A stretch of 64,000 nt of DNA, taken from Thermodesulfobacteriota bacterium. Lineage in GTDB: Bacteria > Desulfobacterota_D > UBA1144 > Nemesobacterales > Mycalebacteriaceae. The position numbers were made by a program, and so were the translations under genes. Shown here piece after piece: positions 32,821 through 44,940 of the stretch. The stretch is from NCBI GenBank assembly GCA_965198945.1, contig CBDAQI010000013.1, forward strand, positions 128,001-192,000. The letters are read 5' to 3'. Under the pieces are notes generated by a model, which ran no database searches, had not been told where the DNA came from, and was given only the letters and a program-made list of their open reading frames with translations. Each line of letters opens with the position of its first letter. The stretch's first letter is position 1.

Positions 32821-35607
32821 TTATTCGGTATCGCCTGCAATTCGTTTCATTTCTGATTTAAGAACAGTTTTCCGCAGCAAAAATTCCTCAAGTTTTCCCC
32901 TCTCTTTCTGGATGATTTTATCAGGGGCTTTGTTTGTAAAATCAGGATTGGCAAGTTTATGCTCGCAAGCGCTTATTTTTTCGGAGATTTCCCGGATCTG
33001 TCTTTCTATGGCATCCGCGTTTCCGGCGGAGAGATTTCTTTCTTTCTTTTCCGGTTCTATTTTGAGATTGATGTTCAGCCTCCCGGGGATTTCTTTTTTC
33101 GTAATAACAAAAGAGACTGAAAGAGAAAAACCTTTTGCGGAAGAAAACTCTTTTTCATCTTCACAAAAGTGATGGGAGGAGATTCCGGCGAGTTTTTTCA
33201 GTATGGAGATTTCAGATTCAATTAAGGATTTTATGCGCTCCGAATTTTCTCCCGGCTCCGGAAAAAAAGAGACTTTTATTTTTTCAGACACTTTGATTTC
33301 CGCGGCTCCCCTTTTTATACGAATTTCATCAATGAGTCCTTCAAATAAAAATTTCATTTCATTGTATTCGGAGTCAAAGCTTTCCGGCACATTTTCATCA
33401 AACTCAGGGTAGTTTGAATCAAGCAGACTGACGGCTTCGGCACCGGAAAAAATTTTTATTCTCTCGTTTATTTCTTCTGTAATATGAGGGCAGAAAGGGT
33501 GGAGAGCATGTGCCGAGACTGACAGAACATACATAAGAACATGACCTGTTTCCCGTGCTTTTTCCGGGTTTTCACCGTATATTGAAATTTTTGCGGATTC
33601 AATGTAGCGGTCACAAAAGTCTCTCCGGAAAAAACGATATATCTCCCGCGCGGCTTTGCCGAACTCATATTCTTCCATATATTCATCAATGTTTTTTAGA
33701 CATTGTTTGAGACTTGCAAGTATCCATTTGTCGGACCTGCTGAGTTTTGCGGACGGTATAACCCCTTCCCCGCATTTATCAAACCGCCCCGGTTTTTCAT
33801 CAATTTCAAGAATAAAACGCGCCGCATTCCATATCTTGTTCATAAAATTTCTGTATCCCCTGATTGTTGAAAGGGAAAGTTCAATATCTTTTCCGCCCGA
33901 AGTCAGAGCACAGAGACAAAAACGAAGAGCATCAGCGCCGAATTGATCCGCAATTTCAAGAGGGTCTATTACATTGCCCTTGGTTTTGCTCATTTTTTCG
34001 CCCTTCTCATCTCGTATCAGGCCGTGAATGCATATGTCGCCGAAAGGGCTTTTCCCCGTAAATTGAAGTCCGAACATGGCCATGCGCGCCACCCAGAAAA
34101 ATATTATGTCAAACCCGGTTATCAGAACCGTTGTGGGGTAGTATGTTTGGAACAAACGGTCGTCTTCCCGGCCCCAGTTCAGGGTAACAAAAGGCCACAG
34201 AGCGGAAGAAAACCATGTGTCCAGAACATTCGGATCCCTTGTGATTTCAACTTTTTCGCCGTAATGTCTGAAAGAGCTTTCCGCGGCTTTTTTTCCGTCT
34301 TTTTCAACAAACACTTCCCCGTCAGGCCCATACCATGCGGGTATTTGATGCCCCCACCATAGCTGCCGCGATATACACCATGGTTCTATGTTTTTCATCC
34401 ACTGAAAATAGGTGCGTTCCCAGAATTTCGGATAAAATTTCATTTCATCTTTTTCAACTGCCCTGACGGCTTGCCCGGCAAAACTTTTAACGTCCATATA
34501 CCACTGTTCCATAAGACGCGGTTCTATGACGGCTCCCGACCTGTCGCCGTAGGGAACAGTATGTGAAATGTTTTGCGTTTTTTGCAGAAATCCGCCCTCT
34601 TCCAGATCTTTAACAAGCTTTTTTCTCGCTTCAAACCTATCAAGTGTTCTGTATTTTTCGGGCGCATTCTCATTCAGACATGTGTTTTCATCAAAGATGT
34701 TTACTGGAGACAAATTGTGCCTTTTGCCGACTTCAAAATCATTGAAATCATGGGCGGGGGTTATCTTGACCGCGCCGCTTCCTTTTTCGGGATCCGAATA
34801 CTCATCCGCGATTACCGGAACGGATCTTCCGGTGAGAGGCAAATCAACCTCCGTGCCGACAAGGTCTTTATACCTGTCATCTGAAGGATGAACCGCGACC
34901 GCCACATCACCGAACATAGTTTCAGGTCTGGTTGTGGCGACAGTTATATGTCCGTCGCCGTCTTTCAAAGGGTATTTTATATGCCAATAGTGTCCCTGAA
35001 CTTCTTTCTGTTCCACTTCCAGATCAGAAATTGCGGTTTTCAATTTCGGGTCATAGTTAACCAGCCTGTAGTCGCGTCTGATAAATTTTTGCTTGTAAAG
35101 TTCAACAAAAACATCTTTGACGGCATCGGAAAAACCGTCATCCATTGTAAACCTCTGTTTGCTCCAGTCCGGAATAAAACCGAGTCTGCGTATTTGTTCA
35201 AAAATTTTGTCTCCTGATTTTTCCTTGAACTCCCAGACTTTCTCAATAAAATTCTCCTTTCCGATGCTTTCCCTCTCAATCCCTTCCTTTGCAAGTTCAC
35301 GCTCAACAATCATCTGAGTCGCAATTCCCGCATGGTCGGTTCCCGGAACCCAGAGCACATCAAATCCTTTCATTTTTTTATAACGGACGAGAACGTCCTG
35401 AAGAGTGTTGTTGAGGGCATGCCCTATATGCAGAGAGCCCGTAACGTTGGGAGGCGGCATAACAACGGAAAAAACCGGTTTGCCGCCCTTGTCTGTTTTT
35501 AAAGACTTGAATTTTTCATTCTCAAGCCAGAAATTCCGCCATTTTTCCTCAAGCGGGACCGGGTTGTATGTTTTTTCCATGCCTTCCGGAACTGGAGGCA
35601 CGGTCAT
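32821..35607 (-). CDS. valS: Valine--tRNA ligase
   Basis: [29 protein letters not shown]; the start may instead be 35580. Confidence 0.97.
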
Positions 35608-38600
35608 ACCCCCAGTTTTTCTTCAAGTTTTTCGGATTGAACTTCTTCCAGAACGGGAACTGGAACCGGAACCTCATCTTCCTGTTTTTGAATTCTGATG
35701 TCTTTATACATCCCAAGCCCGGTGCCCGCAGGTATGATTTTCCCGATAATGACGTTTTCTTTAAGTCCTTTGAGTTTATCCTCTTTGCTTTCGCATGCGG
35801 CTTCGGTAAGAACCTTTGTAGTTTCCTGGAAAGACGCGGCGGAAAGCCAGCTTTCAGTGCTCAAAGAAGAGCGGGTGATTCCAAGTAGCAGAGGTTCGGC
35901 TGTGGCGGGCTTGCCGTCTTGCTCTTCCACTTCAGCATTTTCTTTATGGAAAAAGGTTTTTGTTATATGTTCTCCGGGAAGCATGGTTGTATCTCCCGGA
36001 TCTTTAATTTTGACCCTTTTCAGCATCTGTCTGACTATCACTTCTATATGTTTGTCGTTTATCCTCACACCCTGGAGTTTGTAAACTTCCTGGATCTCTT
36101 TGACCAGAAACTCGCTGAGAGCCTTTTCCCCTTTAATTTTAAGAATATCATGAGGGTTTTCGTCACCATCCACAAGTTTGTCTCCGGAAAACACAAAGTC
36201 TCCTTCTCTCACGAGAATATGCTCTCCTCTCGGAACAATATATTCTTTTTTCTCTCCAACTTCCGGCTGAACAAAAACACGCCTTTTGCCCTTCACGTCT
36301 TCTCCAAATGCAACGGTGCCGTCAATTTCGCTCACTATTGCGAGATCTTTTGGAACACGCGCTTCAAAAAGCTCCGCAACTCTGGGCAAACCACCGGTTA
36401 TGTCTTTTGTTTTGGCGGTTTCTTTGGGAATTTTTGCTATTATGTCTCCGGGTTCCGTCAGGTCGCCGTCGCTTTTTTCAATAATCGCCCCGGTGGGAAG
36501 ATCTTCGGATTGCAGAAGTTCTACGTCGCTCTGCTTTCCCGGGTCTTCAACTATTATTCTTGGTTTAAGTTTTGTGCTTTTGGATTCAATTACAACCTTT
36601 TCAAGCATGCCCGTAACTTCATCAGCCTGCTCCTTAAAGGTTATTCCCATCTCAAGGTCTCTCCATTTAACGGTTCCCGATTTCTCTGAAATAATAGGAG
36701 TCGTGTAGGGATCCCATTCGGCAAGAAGGGTTTTCTCTTTTACTTTTTCTCCGTCTTTGACTTTAAGACGGGAGCCGAGCTCAAGTTTGTATTTTTCTCT
36801 CTCATACCCCTTTTCATCCATAATGGCTATGTTTCCGTTTCTGTTGGTAACAACAAGCTGTCCGTCAGTCGTTTCAGCGGTTTCAAGATTGGACATTTTT
36901 ACCACACCCGCGAGATTATTCTCAAGGGTGGTTTCCATTGCACTCTGGCTTGCGGCTCCGCCTATGTGGAAAGTTCTCATTGTAAGCTGAGTTCCCGGCT
37001 CGCCGATTGACTGCGCAGCCATAATTCCCACGGCCTCACCTATTTCCACTATCTTTCCGGTTGAAAGATTTCTGCCGTAACAGAGGCGGCATATTCCTTC
37101 TTCGGTATCGCAAGTCAAAACCGAACGGATTTTAACTTCACTTATTACGCTTTCGTTGATTTTTGCCGCCGCCTCGTTGTCCACCTCCCGGCCGCTTTTC
37201 ACGATAATTTCCCCCGTTTCCGGGTTTTTCAAATCATCAAGAACTACCCTTCCGAGAACCCTGTCTCCCACATGTTCTCTCACTCTGCCTCCTTCCACCA
37301 AATCGGTATAAAGCAGGCCTTCAATGGTTCCGCAGTTTTCTTCGGTGACTATTATGTCATGCGCAACATCAATCAGTTTTCTTGTAAGATGACCGGCGTT
37401 AGCGGTTTTAAGAGCGGTATCGGCAAGCCCTTTTCTGGCTCCATGGGTTGATATGAAATAGTCCATCACTTTCATGCCTTCTCTGAAATTTGAAGTGATG
37501 GGCTTTTCAATGATCGTGCCGTCCGGCCGTGCCATCAAGCCCCTCATTCCCGCAAGCTGTCTCACCTGTGTTTTGCTTCCGCGCGCGCCGGAATCTATCA
37601 TCATATATATGGGATTTGAACTGGTCCTTTTTATCTCATTGCCTTTTTTATCCGTGGCGGTTTCAAACTTGATGTTTTCCATCATTTCGTCCGCAACTTC
37701 ATCACTTGTTTTGGACCATATATCAACAATTTTGTTGTAGCGCTCTCCGTCCGTTATCAGTCCCTGGGAATACTGTTCCTGAATTTTCATTTCCTCATCA
37801 CGGGCTTCTTTGACAAGAGTTTCCTTGCTGTCCGGAATTTGCATGTCGTCAATTGAGATGGAAATTCCGGATTTGGTGGCGTATTTGAAGCCGAGCGTTC
37901 TTATTCGGTCAGCCATAACAACCGTTTCCTTGCCGCCGTTCATTCTAAAGCAGGTGTCCACAAGACTTTCAACTTCCCCTTTACTCATGGGTTTGTTAAT
38001 GAGGTCAAAAGGAATTGTTTTTGGAATGGCCTCATCGTAGAGAATTGCCCTTCCCACGGTTGTTTCAATAATTTCATCATTAATTCTGATTTTTATCTGA
38101 GCGTGAATATCAACGTGACCGGAATGATAGGCCATCACAACTTCTTCCGGCGATGAAAAGTATTTGCCCTCCCCCTTGCTATGAGAGGAATCTTTGGTCA
38201 TATAGTAAACTCCGAGCACAATATCCTGGGTCGGCAGAATAACCGGCTTTCCGTGCGCCGGGGAAAGTATGTTGTTTGTTGACATAACAAGTGTGCGGCA
38301 CTCGGCCTGTGCCTCAATTGACAGAGGGACATGAACGGCCATCTGGTCGCCATCAAAATCTGCGTTATAGGCGGGGCAAACGAGCGGGTGAACCCTGATT
38401 GACCTGTCTTCAACAAGCACGGGCTCAAAAGCCTGAATGCTCAATTTGTGAAGTGTCGGCGCCCTGTTGAGCATAACCATATGCTCTTTGATAACGTCAT
38501 CAAGGGCATCCCAAACCACCGGAGCGCCGGTTTCAACAAACTTTTTCGCTATTTTAATTGTCGGCGCGACCGAACTTCCGTCTTTATTCTTCAGTTCCTG

Positions 38601-40496
38601 AAGTTTTTGATAGATGAACGGCTTGAAAAGCTCAAGAGCCATCTGTTTTGGAAGCCCGCACTGGTGAAGCTTCAAGTTCGGGCCAACCGTAATAACCGAA
38701 CGTCCCGAATAGTCCACCCTTTTCCCGAGCAGATTCTGGCGGAATCTTCCGCTTTTGCCTTTGATAATATCCGTCAGACTTTTCAGAGGGCGGTGGTTGT
38801 GTCCCAAAACGGGTCTGCCCCTCCTTCCGTTCTCAAACAAAGCGTCAACGGCTTCTTGAAGCATTCTTTTTTCGTTTCTGACAATAATGTCCGGCGCATC
38901 CAGTTCCAGAAGTCTTTTCAATCTGTTGTTTCTGTTTATGACCCTTCTGTATAAAACATTGAGGTCTGAAGTGGCAAAACGCCCTCCGTGGGGAACCAGG
39001 GGACGAAGGTCCGGAGGCAATACCGGAATGGTCTTCAAAACCATCCATTCGGGGCGGTTGTTTGATTTGCGGAATGTCTCACATATTTTGCGTCTTTTCG
39101 CTATTTTCGCTTTTTTCAAAGGAGAACTGGATTCCTGCATTTCAGTTTTCAGTTCTTCCGAGAGAGCCTTTAAATCAATGCTTTTCAACATGTCATAAAT
39201 GGCTTCCGCTCCCATTCCGTATGTGTAGTTAACCTCAAAGCCGTCATCCGCTTCGAGAAGTATGCTGATTTCCTCTTTCGTGAAAGAAGCCTTAATGAGC
39301 TTGCCGAACTCATCCTGGTCTTTTTTCATTTTGTCTCTAACTTTTATCAGCTGCTCATAATCCTCTCTAAAATGTGAAGGAACCTCTTCGCCTTCGGCTT
39401 CCGCTTTTTTCATTTTTCTCTCTGCGTCTCTGTAAGACCTGCGCATTTCAGAGTGTTTTTTGCCCTTCTCGCCTTTTAGAAGGTTGTCGCGTGACAGACC
39501 AACCACTTCATCTTCTGCGGTTTGTGAAAGTTCTTTGAAAGCATCGCGTATTTTTTTATCGCTTGCGGGAATCTCTTCCAGTCCGAGAGTTTTGTAGTGT
39601 TCTCCGAACTGATTCTTAAAGTCCTCCCTGGCGGACTGAAAAATATCCATTGCGGTTTTGGGTTTGTCGCCGACCCGGTCTTTTTCCAACTCGGAAACTT
39701 TGGCGTCATATACTTTCCGCTCGTTTTCGTAATTTTTTTTAGCATCCAGAAAAGAATAAATCCTGCGCCTGATCTCGTGTTCGGAAAAACCTTTTTTGCC
39801 GGACAAAAGACCCTGCAATGAAAATTTTGCGGCCACTTCCCCCGGCACGAGATATTTATACCAGAAATCCTTCACCAGAGACATTTCTTCTTCACTCATC
39901 AATAAAGAAACGAGACGTTCCACGTCTTCCTCAGTTTCAAGGTGGGTAAAATCCTGCTCGGAAACTTTTTCAAGAGAGGGAATGACATACTCCGCTTTTC
40001 TCAAACTGGCCAGATCCTCACCCGTGAGAATTTGTCCCATTTTAAGAGAGGAATTGGCCGGGTCTATGACCACGTTGGATTCGTAGTAGAGAACCCTGTC
40101 AAGGTCTTTGAGACTCATATCAAGAATCATCCCTATGCGGCTTGGAGTGCTGCGCAGGAACCAGATATGAACAACCGGTGAGGCAAGGTCTATATGAGCC
40201 ATCCTTTCCCGTCTTAACTTTGAAGTTGTGACTTCCACGCCGCACTTTTCACAGACGATGCCCCTGTGTTTCAGTCTCTTGTATTTCCCGCAGGCACACT
40301 CGTAATCCTTGACCGGACCGAAGATTTTAGGGCAGAACAAGCCATTTTTTTCAGGTTTGAAGGTTCTGTAATTTATTGTCTCGGGTTTTTTAACTTCCCC
40401 GTGAGACCATGATTTTATGGCTTCGGGAGATGCTATTGATATCTGGACCCCGGAATAATCGTCCGCTTTGTTTGTTATCATATCTTCAAAATTCAC
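35604..40496 (-). CDS. rpoC: RNA polymerase beta' subunit with a large N-terminal insertion
   Basis: KPETINYRT, Zn finger, [29 protein letters not shown] start after GGAGG. Confidence 0.98.
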
Positions 40497-40515
40497 TTTT
40501 TTGCCGCCTCCATTT

Positions 40516-43500
40516 TTAAAGCTCTGATGACGCCCGCAATTCCATTTCGCGGTCACTGTCTGAAGTTAGTTCAATCTGCAAACCGAGAGATTGAAGCTCT
40601 TTTCTTAAAACATTGAAAGATTCCGGAATACCCGGGTCAAGAGACATTTTGCCTTCAACTATTGAGGCAAACATCTTTGTTCTTCCTGCAACATCATCTG
40701 ACTTAACCGTCAGGAATTCCTGAAGCGTATGAGCTGCTCCGTAGGCTTCAAGCGCCCAGACTTCCATTTCACCAAGCCTCTGTCCTCCGAAGTGAGCTTT
40801 TCCTCCGAGCGGCTGCTGTGTCACAAGAGAATACGGCCCTATTGAACGCGCGTGTATTTTCTCTTCAACAAGGTGATGAAGCTTCAGCATATACATAATT
40901 CCCACAGTTACTTTCTGGTCAAAAGGCTCGCCGGTGCGTCCGTCAAACAAAGTTGTTTTTCCGTCTCCCGGCAGGTCTGCAATTTTCATAAAACTTTTTA
41001 TTTCCTCTTCCGTGGCGCCGTCAAAAACGGGAGAAGCAATGGGAATTCCCTCTTTAAGGGCTTTCACAAGATCATAAACCTGCTCATCTTTTATTGTGTC
41101 TATGAAAGACTTGTCACCATGAGTTTTTCCATAGAATTCTTTCAATTTGTCTTTAATGGCTCCGGGACTGTAATTTTTTTCTATATATTCATTGATTTGA
41201 CTGCCGATTTTTTTGCTTGCCCATCCCAGATGTGTTTCAAGAACCTGGCCCACATTCATCCTTGAGGGAACCCCGAGAGGGTTAAGGACCATGTCAACCG
41301 GTGTTCCGTCAGCCATATAGGGCATATCTTCCTGAGGAAGAATTCTTGATACGACACCCTTGTTTCCATGGCGTCCCGCCATTTTGTCTCCCACCTGCAG
41401 ATTCATTTTGACCGCGACATAAACCTTCACAGTTTTCAAAACACCGGGGGCAAGGTCGTCTTTCTGCTCAATTTTTTTAATTCTTTCCTCATGTTTCCGC
41501 TTTGCATCACTGATGTCTTTGATGCACAAATCCGCTTTTTCTTTGAGTGTTTCAGATAACGACTTAGGCTCAACTTTAATGTTTTGAATTTCTTCAAGGG
41601 TGAGCCGCTTCAGAGCTTCAATTTTAAAAGAGTCTCCTTTTGAAATAAGGTTTTCTCCTTCTCTGGTAATATTTGAAGACGCTTTTTTATCTTTTAACAG
41701 AGAGCATATTTCTTTGTCGGCACTCTCTCGTAAAATTGTCGTCTCCAGTTCCATTTCCTGTCTTATTTTTTTAATTTCTCTGACTTCAATCTCCTGAACT
41801 CTGGAGCTTTTTTCCGAAACTGCGCGAGAGGTCAGAACTTTGACATCTATAACCGTGCCGGCAATTGAGGAATGACTTCTCAGAGAAGTGTCTTTGACTT
41901 CTCTTGCTTTGTCTCCAAATATCGCACGCAGAAGTTTTTCTTCCTGAGACAGACGCGTCTCGCCCTTGGGCGATATTTTCCCCACAAGGATATCTCCCAT
42001 GTTCACGGTGGCTCCAACCCTTATTATTCCGCTCTCATCAAGATTTTTTATCGCATCTTCACCGATATTGGTAATGTCCCGGGTTATTTCCTCTTTGCCC
42101 AGCTTTGTTTCCCTGGCCTGACATTCAAATTCGTCTACGTGAATTGAGGTGAAAACATCATCTTTGACTATTCTTTCACTTATGAGAATTGCATCCTCAA
42201 AGTTGTATCCCCCCCAGGGCATAAAGGCCACCATCACATTCTGACCCAGGGCAAGCTCACCGTTTTTGGTGGAAGGGCCGTCCGCAATAATCTGTCCCTT
42301 TGAAACTTTCTGTCCCTTTGAAACTATCGGAGTCTGATTCCAGCAGGTTCCCTGGTTGGATTTGCAGAATTTGACCATTTTGTATGTCTCAATTCCGGAC
42401 ACTGAAGAGTTTGCGGACTTGCCCGGTTTGCTGTTTTTCACCATTATGACTTCCGAGTCGGCATGGATTACCTCGCCGTCCTCCCGGGCCACGAGAGCAA
42501 CGCCCGAGTCTTTGGCAACAGATGATTCAAGCCCCGTTCCCACAATCGGTGAAACGGCTCTTATCAGGGGAGTCGCCTGCCTCTGCATGTTTGAACCCAT
42601 AAGAGCTCTGTTAGCGTCATCATGTTCAAGAAAAGGTATTAAAGAAGCGGAGATTGAAACAAGCTGGGAGGGAGAAACATCCATATGAGTAACTTTATCT
42701 TTCTCCACCATTTTAATCTCGCCTTCGGAACGGGAAGAGACAAAGTCAAGAATAAAACGCCCGTCCTCATCAAGCGGCGCATTTGCCTGCGCAATCACTA
42801 TGTTTTTCTCTTCCTCTTCCAGTGCGCTCATTTTGACCGTCTTGTCTGTAACAACACCATTCTCAACAACACGGTAGGGAGCCCTTATGAATCCTAAGTC
42901 ATCAATTTCAGCATATGTGCTTATGCTTGATATGAGACCAATATTGGGCCCTTCCGGAGTTTCCACCGGACAGATTCGGCCGTAATGAGATGAGTGGACA
43001 TCTCTGACGGCAAACCCCGCTCTTTCCCGTGTCAGCCCTTTCGGGCCCAAAGCGCTGAGACGTCTCTTGTGGGTTATTTCCGAAAGCGGGTTGGTTTGAT
43101 CCATAAACTGTGAAAGCTGACCCGTTTTGAAAAAGTCTTTTACGATTGTGTCCACAACTTTCGGGACGACAATTTCTCTGGGCATTTTATTCTCAATACT
43201 CTGGTAACCAATCCTTTCTTTAACCGACCGCGCAAAACGTTCAAGACCGCTGTAGAAGGTTTCTTCTATCAACTCTCCGACAGTTTTCACTCTCCGGTTG
43301 CCCAGATGGTCAATATCATCCACCTGTCTGCGCCCGCCCTTCAGTTCAAGGAGGTATTTCAATGTTTGAATTATGTCTTCCCTGGTCAGAGTGAGTATTG
43401 TTTCGTCAACATTGTGTTTGAGTTTGTAGTTGAGTTTTTTCCTGCCGACCTGAGAAAGTCTGTATTTGGATGGATTGAAGAACATATCGGAGAAAAATGT

Positions 43501-44940
43501 TCGCGCAATCTCTTTACTCGGAGGATCTGTCGGCCGGAATTTTCTGTATATTTCAGCAATGGCACCGTCGCAAAAGACTTCAACTTCGGCCCCTATTGCG
43601 GAAAATGCGTCTCTAATCCCGCTGACTTCGGAAAGATGCAGGTTTTCAAAGGAGACCTCTTCGTTTTTGATAATATCAACATAACCGGGGGACTTCTTCA
43701 GTTCCTTTGAAAATTCATTTTTCCCGGCGCCCGCACGTTTCACATTCAAAGCGAATGTTCCGTTGATTGAGTTCCCGTAAATTCTTTTTTCTTCAAGAAG
43801 AGTGTCCGCAATTGAAAAAGGCACCGAAATATCGTCCATATAGTAAAAGGAAATTTTTTCAATTGAATTTTCCTTTAAAGATTTAATTGTCTCTTCGGTT
43901 ATTTTTTCTCCCAGGCGCGCTATGACCTCCCCGTTTTTATTTATGATGTTTTCAGCGCATATTTTTTCAAACAAGTCGGATTCACTTTCCAGCGGAATGG
44001 AATCTATATTCAGACTTTTCAGTTTTTCAACTGTTCTTGCCGTGAATTTTCTTCCTTTTTTAACGACTACTTCATCTCCCTTTTTGATATCCGCAAAGCT
44101 TTTCTGATGAATAATCGTTTCAGGGTTTATTTTTTTTAAGAGACCGCCTTGATTGTCAAACCTGACAGTTTCCATGCTGTAGAAATGATCAAGAATTTCT
44201 CTTTCCGTATATCCGAGAGCTTTGAGAAAAAGGGTGACAAGAAATCTTTTCCTACGGTCAATACGGACATTTAGAAAGCTTTTTGAGTCAAAGTCAAAAT
44301 CAAGCCACCTGCCGTCTTGGGGAATCACTCTTGCCACGAAAGACTCTCTTCCGGAGGCCTGAGACTGGTCTCCGAGTTTGGGGCCGTCAAAAAGCACTCC
44401 CGGAGAGCGGTGTATTTGATTTACAATAACTCTTTCGGCGCCGCCTATTATGAATGAACCGTTTGCGGTCATTTTAGGAATTTCACCGAAATAAACATCC
44501 TGCTCCGTTACGTCGCGAATCCCGTCTCCGTCTTCTTCCCAGACAATCAGACGCAGGGTGACGTAAAGCGAAACCGTATGGTCATAATTTTTGAGCTTGC
44601 ACTCCATTTCATCAAATTTGGGATTCAGGTCATAAATTTCGTGCCCGTTTTTATCTTTCAAACCCTTGCCGTCTTCGCCTACAACTCTCTGACCCAGACT
44701 GTAGTGAACAAAGTCAAGAGAAGTTCTCTCAGCATAATTTTCTATGGGGAAAACAGCCTTGAAAACGGCTTGCAGTCCGTGATTTTTTCTCCGTGCCCTG
44801 TCTTCCGGAGCAACATCCTCCTGGAGGAATTTTTTATAAGATTCCGTCTGGACATTCAGAAGGTTTGGAATTTCTTGAATAGCCGGTATTTTTGAAAAAG
44901 TTCTTCTTAAATTTATCCCATCAAAATTTTTAGAATTCAA
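40516..44940 (-). CDS. rpoB: RNA polymerase beta subunit with an L7/L12-CTD-like insertion
   Basis: [44 protein letters not shown]. Confidence 0.98.

Follow-up and report, generated by a model that had tools for sequence, protein, structure and literature searches.

Here we describe a large insertion in the RNA polymerase beta' subunit of a Thermodesulfobacteriota bacterium (GenBank assembly GCA_965198945.1). The subunit is encoded within a 64,000-nucleotide stretch of contig CBDAQI010000013.1, and this whole stretch, to which all positions refer, is called the window. The insertion is very likely a new, lineage-specific occupant of the point at which the actinobacterial insert beta'i1 and the Deinococcus-Thermus insert beta'i2 are found, and not a J-domain. 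The clamp tip has a known insertion hotspot, of which this is probably the third, unrelated occupant, acting at the entrance of the cleft. The gene and the insertion are located as follows.

35604..40556, minus strand: rpoC, the open reading frame (ORF) of RNA polymerase beta', 1650 codons counted from the first GTG.
39258..40013, minus strand: the insertion in beta', residues 182-433, about 252 amino acids, without counterpart in E. coli-type beta' (from flank mapping and an alignment with 24 insert-free relatives).

All five Rpb1 domains of Pfam are matched in the rpoC product, which aligns along its length to solved bacterial beta' chains. The alignment falls into two blocks, residues 30-181 and 435 onward, which correspond to residues 14-165 and 168 onward of the Pseudomonas chain. 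When each flank was searched alone (phmmer), residue 181 mapped to residue 164 of E. coli beta' and residue 434 to residue 166. The conserved motifs GQILTGEDL (residues 174-182) and GMGAEAI (residues 447-453) are separated by 264 residues here and by 14 in the Pseudomonas and E. coli chains. An initial annotation, made from the sequence alone, had placed an in-frame insert of about 250 amino acids between these motifs, and both the spacing and the flank mapping bear this out. Its span of 39237-39995 (residues 188-440) is the same feature within alignment slack, and the alignment with reference RpoC that it proposed as a check returns the 252 or so extra residues 182-433. The G+C content of the insert, 0.41-0.46, lies inside the range of the adjoining sequence.

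The flanks also map onto the polymerases that carry the known inserts. Residues 180 and 435 correspond to residues 152 and 243 of the M. tuberculosis chain, and residues 186 and 447 to residues 162 and 455 of the T. thermophilus chain. The same gap holds the 90-residue beta'i1 in mycobacteria and the 292-residue beta'i2 in Thermus. Because the flanks map to the conserved segments that border beta'i1 and beta'i2, the insertion point is the same. Hubin et al. 2017 (PMC5511352) state that these two inserts share one insertion point. Actinobacteria and Thermus had already been named as carrying lineage-specific insertions in this clamp region; the correspondence turns out to be closer, at the level of the insertion point itself. 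The surrounding region is the small domain beta'-bD2 in the nomenclature of Alvarez-Carreno 2024 (PMC11515920).

Two sources of such an insertion were rejected. An assembly artefact or a pseudogene does not fit, because the insert recurs in five further genomes, in one of which a contig end truncates it, and no copy has a disrupted frame. An intein does not fit either: no Intein or Hint family was matched in Pfam at E<=1, the insert has no cysteine, and it ends in an acidic helix without His-Asn. The absence of intein ends noticed at first sight is confirmed by these results.

The insertion is confined to one genus, in which all six genomes carry it. A total of 35 other genomes of the same order, from seven families, were searched for the site. 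In 34 of them the flanks are at most 110 nucleotides apart, and in 33 of these at most 34 nucleotides; in the 35th a contig end precedes the insertion site. In the phylum, 120 genomes were searched for rpoC and 116 were matched. Frames of 1633-1667 amino acids occur only in this genus. The other 110 matched genomes have frames of at most 1445 amino acids, 97 of them at 1353-1445, while 13 are cut short and uninformative by length. This survey of order and phylum answers the question of taxonomic distribution that the initial annotation had raised. The nearest named relative is Candidatus Mycalebacterium, of the class Dadabacteria.

Within the genus the insert has diverged much more than its surroundings, yet it is constrained. 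Among the five complete copies, identity is 46-60% in the insert as opposed to 86-91% in the rest of the fragment. The proportion of nonsynonymous differences (pN) over the 10 pairs is 0.25-0.34 in the insert and 0.056-0.084 elsewhere in the fragment, and the proportion of synonymous differences (pS) is 0.60-0.81, which is saturated. Since pN is well below pS, the insert is under purifying selection, although its rate of evolution is 4-5 times that of the remainder of beta'. Its length stays within 248-260 residues, and its charge polarity is kept in all five complete copies. In the orthologue alignment the invariant positions group in three places.

Within the insert: invariant stretch Y-x-x-L-x-L-x3-P-x-S-x2-K-I-x2-A-F.
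Within the insert: invariant stretch D-x-L ... K-x-H-x3-R.
39372..39383, minus strand: V-P-x-H turn at residues 392-395, invariant, located between the final two long helices.

Searches for relatives of the insert led back to the same clade. A profile of the six inserts was compared with 1.84 billion representative proteins and matched two at E<=0.001. One is an RpoC of this clade; the other, a repetitive coiled-coil surface protein, was judged spurious. A word-based search of 5.8 billion proteins gave three matches, all of them RpoC of this clade and one from Candidatus Mycalebacterium sp. (NCBI). The insert has no Pfam match at E<=1 and no match among PDB sequences at E<=10, and residues 331-470 match no PDB sequence at E<=0.001. 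A protein Atlas search with the insert gave no usable match. The organism's own genome, searched by blastn, tblastn and self-blastp, holds no donor, paralogue or internal repeat. A mobile origin was also rejected: the only repeats near the insert, whether direct or inverted, are short matches of lysine/glutamate codons.

No paper naming Mycalebacterium was found, and among the titles listed on sponge symbionts and genome reduction in Dadabacteria none concerns an RNA polymerase insert. The survey in PMC11515920 lists in its Table S4 16 unusual beta' architectures, all from the Deinococcus-Thermus-Synergistes-Thermotogae group, Firmicutes or Tenericutes, and the insert matches none of these 16. 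A helical occupant of this site catalogued by Lane & Darst 2010, or in supplements to the survey or to Hubin et al. 2017, would lower the novelty. The earlier suggestion of an undescribed clamp appendage is supported to this extent: the insert matches neither beta'i1, beta'i2 nor anything else that was searched, Table S4 included.

The composition of the insert agrees with its prediction as a charged helical segment. It holds 49 lysine or arginine and 54 aspartate or glutamate residues in 252, and two AlphaFold models give only helices in the insert, 12 in number, with no strand of three or more residues. One model was built from the insert alone with 6 sequences and has a mean predicted local distance difference test (pLDDT) of 64 and a predicted template modelling score (pTM) of 0.34. 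The other, here called the context model, covers the N-terminal 620 residues with 26 sequences; its pLDDT in the insert is 53-87 per ten-residue block, and the conserved parts are poorly modelled. The packing of the helices is uncertain because the models rest on few sequences with low global confidence. Three parts can be delimited.

39789..40013, minus strand: N-terminal acidic helical subdomain, residues 182-256, net charge -4 to -6 in five of five complete orthologues, pLDDT 57-83 in the context model.
39285..39788, minus strand: elongated helical bundle, residues 257-424, net charge +1 to +6, predicted as four long helices (27-32 residues each), the second and third of which are separated by two short ones.
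39243..39278, minus strand: acidic exit helix, residues 427-438, net charge -3 to -5, which leads back to the conserved fold.

Structural searches returned no specific relative. Foldseek with the insert-only model gave no match at E<=0.001, and VIA-align gave generic bundles only (Z<=8.3), which is rated as background for helical models. With the context model, the structural search found generic antiparallel helical bundles and hairpins at Z<=8.7. Its top row is the M. tuberculosis beta' chain 6edt_D (Z 8.7, rmsd (root-mean-square deviation) 4.1, 133 aligned residues), which is tied with unrelated bundles and whose aligned length could be reached by the flanks alone. Foldseek with the context model gave beta' chains only, driven by the flanks.

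Among the closest known counterparts is beta'i1, also called beta'In1, at about residues 141-230 of M. smegmatis and M. tuberculosis beta'. According to PMC5511352 it consists of two long antiparallel helices that emerge from the clamp tip across the cleft entrance and show a conserved charge asymmetry. The insert shares with it the insertion point, an all-helical architecture (by prediction), antiparallel long helices, a conserved asymmetry of charge and the restriction to one lineage. Unlike beta'i1, which has 90 residues and two helices and is old and phylum-wide, the insert has about 252 residues, 12 helices and an additional acidic subdomain, and is recent and genus-wide. No sequence similarity between the two was detected, either as a PDB match or as an actinobacterial protein in the profile search. 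The beta'i2 of Deinococcus-Thermus, known as the beta' non-conserved domain, shares the insertion point and is of similar size (292 residues between the flanks). It is a beta-rich array of five sandwich-barrel hybrid motifs according to the same paper, in contrast to the insert with no predicted strand. According to PMC11515920, HABAS domains account for the majority of lineage-specific beta' inserts, and the rarer variants are BEAN and sLC domains. The insert resembles them as a lineage-specific insertion in beta'-bD2, but it is helical by prediction, recent, and in none of the three classes.

From these comparisons a role at the cleft entrance can be proposed. The insert was very likely gained in the ancestor of one genus as an in-frame sequence insertion in the beta' clamp. 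It is a folded module under selection, predicted to be all-helical, whose 252 or so residues divide into an acidic subdomain at the N-terminus (about 75 residues) and a bundle of slightly basic charge (about 170 residues). By analogy with beta'i1 it may project from the clamp tip where the active-centre cleft opens. Its helices of about 28-32 residues, or some 42-48 Angstrom, could then extend over part of the cleft. There the insert could influence the loading or entry of DNA and the stability of the open complex, possibly in concert with sigma and with a beta insert that lies across the cleft, at the foot of the gate loop. We hold this gate mechanism tentatively, as a possibility that falls short of an even chance. 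Taken as a whole, identity and mechanism together are the explanation towards which we lean slightly.

Several points weigh against this proposal. The position assumed for the insert relative to the cleft comes from no structure or model: its projection from the clamp tip is borrowed from beta'i1, to which it is unrelated in sequence. The sharing of a site does not fix a function, because the beta'i2 of Thermus at the same place projects differently and serves sigma binding. The rapid evolution of the insert and its richness in lysine and glutamate are features of tolerated surface add-ons. Both models have low global confidence (pTM 0.34 and 0.40), and the insert-only model derives from just 6 sequences. 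The ratios of nonsynonymous to synonymous rates (dN/dS) are only rough because synonymous sites are saturated.

The main rival, though rather unlikely in our judgement, is that the insert is a tolerated and largely function-less surface add-on. In-frame accretion would have been fixed by drift in a lineage with small populations and small genomes, and the segment would be kept since its removal would disturb the folding of the clamp. An orphan sequence without a donor, of charged and low-complexity composition and with 4-5 times the nonsynonymous divergence of the rest of beta', is what such an origin would leave. The restriction to a genus with genomes of 1.2-1.6 Mb fits as well, and the two further inserts gained by the beta subunit of the same genus (see below) would reflect a general tendency to accretion. 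Yet a function-less segment is not expected to be kept in six of six genomes at 248-260 amino acids with intact frames, with pN well below pS, several invariant motifs and a conserved charge pattern. Genome reduction alone is no explanation either, because genomes of the sister order are smaller still (0.8-1.1 Mb) and lack the insert.

The beta subunit of the genus carries two inserts of its own. The positions of these and of the adjacent gate loop are given here.

43564..43794, minus strand: genus-specific beta insert of about 70 amino acids, rpoB residues 383-459, between residues 357 and 367 of Pseudomonas beta.
43513..43545, minus strand: equivalent of the beta gate loop, residues 466-476, from alignment.
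44623-44688, minus strand: second genus-specific beta insert, 22 residues (rpoB residues 85-106), rich in glycine, aspartate and lysine.

The larger insert ends six residues before the gate loop, as residue 460 aligns with Pseudomonas beta 367 and the loop comprises Pseudomonas residues 373-383 (368-378 in E. coli), as given by He et al. 2022 (PMC9300723). In that account the gate loop belongs to the beta lobe; together with region 1.2 of sigma it closes off the upper cleft and restricts the loading of promoters. The 22-residue insert is not in the Pseudomonas chain. Both beta inserts are present in five of five complete genes of the genus and in none of nine aligned relatives, and split rpoB matches in other genomes of the order agree with their confinement to the genus. 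The pattern of conserved residues in the larger one suggests, as a sequence-based observation, a small alpha/beta module. This insert may be functionally linked to the beta' insert; a complex prediction of the two gave scores of 0.00 and 0.00, which says nothing for or against binding.

The primary sigma factor of the genus also differs. In two genomes of the genus region 1.2 starts at residues 39 and 35, as opposed to 87 and 79 in two genomes of other families, a comparison of 2 proteins per side. The conserved sigma regions also have lower scores in the genus, by about 20-30 bits for regions 2 and 3 of the sigma from the present genome. The group-1-type sigma of the present genome has 479 amino acids and is encoded outside the window (L074, 796-2235, contig C5).

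Combining these changes, the DNA-loading gate might have been rebuilt in three places in one genus: a helical arm of 250 residues on the beta' clamp tip, a beta module of about 70 residues and a primary sigma shorter by about 45 residues before region 1.2. Together they would form a built-in lid or latch over the cleft, with a function in cis that elsewhere falls to accessory factors or to sigma region 1.1. We regard this extension as speculative and unlikely. The changes in beta', beta and sigma all surround one opening of the enzyme, which amounts to a coincidence of place only.

The insert could alternatively be a docking surface for sigma, for a lineage-specific factor or for another RNA polymerase. 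The site has precedents of this kind in two papers: beta'i2 is given a role in sigma-A binding (PMC5511352), and beta'i1 makes inter-polymerase contacts in the sigma-B octamer of M. tuberculosis (PMC9886945). Long helical bundles are common interaction modules, and the group-1 sigma of the genus is unlike that of sister families in the earlier start of region 1.2 noted above for 2 proteins per side. Any partner would be hypothetical, and the docking role appears doubtful. In the discussion of PMC5511352, beta'i1 and an N-terminal segment of sigma are described as jointly blocking the cleft.

The initial annotation had drawn attention to a half motif within the insert that resembles helices I-II of DnaJ and has no HPD.

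39525..39599, minus strand: J-like half motif, 25 residues (320-344), in which a loop links the end of a long helix to a short one; no other part of the insert is as well conserved.

The resemblance is real, conserved and found at the exact position given. The motif, with the pattern Y-x-x-L-G-L-x4-A-S-x3-I-R-x-A-F-K, matches J-domain helices I-II. In a hidden Markov model (HMM) of 21 J-domains from this order, searched with filters off, only positions 6-32 align to it, a local resemblance of 27 residues. The same register was obtained in three of six orthologues (8.0, 7.4 and 6.2 bits). Of the remaining three, one scored 5.7 bits but in a different register, and the others scored 1.6 and 1.3 bits. 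Of 3555 open frames in the genome, a regular expression made after the fact matched only DnaJ and the insert, and it matched in 0 of 20 shuffles. Since the expression was derived from the very two sequences that it matches, this count is circular.

Beyond this local resemblance, a relationship to J-domains was not substantiated. The Pfam scan of the rpoC product gave no match to DnaJ (PF00226) at E<=1, and the best HMM score of 8.0 bits compares with a cut-off of 27.8 bits. A six-frame search with PF00226 in the six genomes of the genus matched only at dnaJ and not at rpoC. None of the six orthologues has an HPD, the sequence after KELS reading QTAEDEV, and no match to helices III-IV was found. 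The HPD is needed for the stimulation of the Hsp70 ATPase by a J-domain. Comparison of the insert with the J-domain by hhalign gave a probability of 3.9% in a different register. No J-domain is among the structural matches listed, although these lists are filled by long helical bundles and the models are of moderate confidence, so that this absence is no proof. The AlphaFold, Foldseek and profile checks proposed for the insert thus gave no support to a J-domain. In the insert model the putative helix I is the terminal part of a 27-residue helix of the bundle, and the helix-loop-helix is most simply read as a structural corner of the bundle. A single J-domain gene was observed in this genome, dnaJ (contig C13, 64400-64585), and up to 6 matches in sister families of the order.

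That the insert is a degenerate J-like module by which DnaK/Hsp70 is brought to RNA polymerase is therefore highly improbable, its pattern match, partial register match and high conservation standing against the missing HPD, the missing helices III-IV, the score far below cut-off and the predicted place of the motif at the end of a bundle helix; recruitment of DnaK by the insert is unlikely.

The reading preferred here remains that of a new, lineage-specific module at the clamp tip. The genes around rpoC are arranged in the order rpoB, rpoC and a synthetase gene, all three on the minus strand.

40516..44940, minus strand: rpoB (beta), 1474 codons, directly upstream of rpoC.
32821-35607, minus strand: class I aminoacyl-tRNA synthetase with the C-terminal arm of Val-tRNA synthetase, downstream of rpoC.

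Counted from the first GTG, the rpoC ORF overlaps the end of rpoB by 41 nucleotides (40516-40556), and its stop shares 4 nucleotides (35604-35607) with the start of the synthetase gene. The likely start of rpoC is M26 at 40481 or V21 at 40496; M26 is suggested because the database copy of the protein has 1625 amino acids. The precomputed Pfam list of the window's own RpoC includes PF25984, and those of the two closest relatives do not.

Few insertion sites are known in bacterial RNA polymerase, and the one at the clamp tip has had two unrelated occupants. A third, helical occupant without relatives shows this site to be a true hotspot for new modules. The origin at the level of a genus contrasts with the survey of PMC11515920, which suggests that such insertions stopped early in bacterial evolution and ceased in late-diverging groups. 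If the reading of a gate rebuilt in three places is true, large insertions of new fold into the core RNA polymerase still arise in recent lineages. The idea of a hidden co-chaperone domain in RNA polymerase is closed as a false lead. The co-occurring inserts in clamp and lobe form a compact natural experiment on the tuning of DNA loading, which would gain in interest if the two prove to work together.

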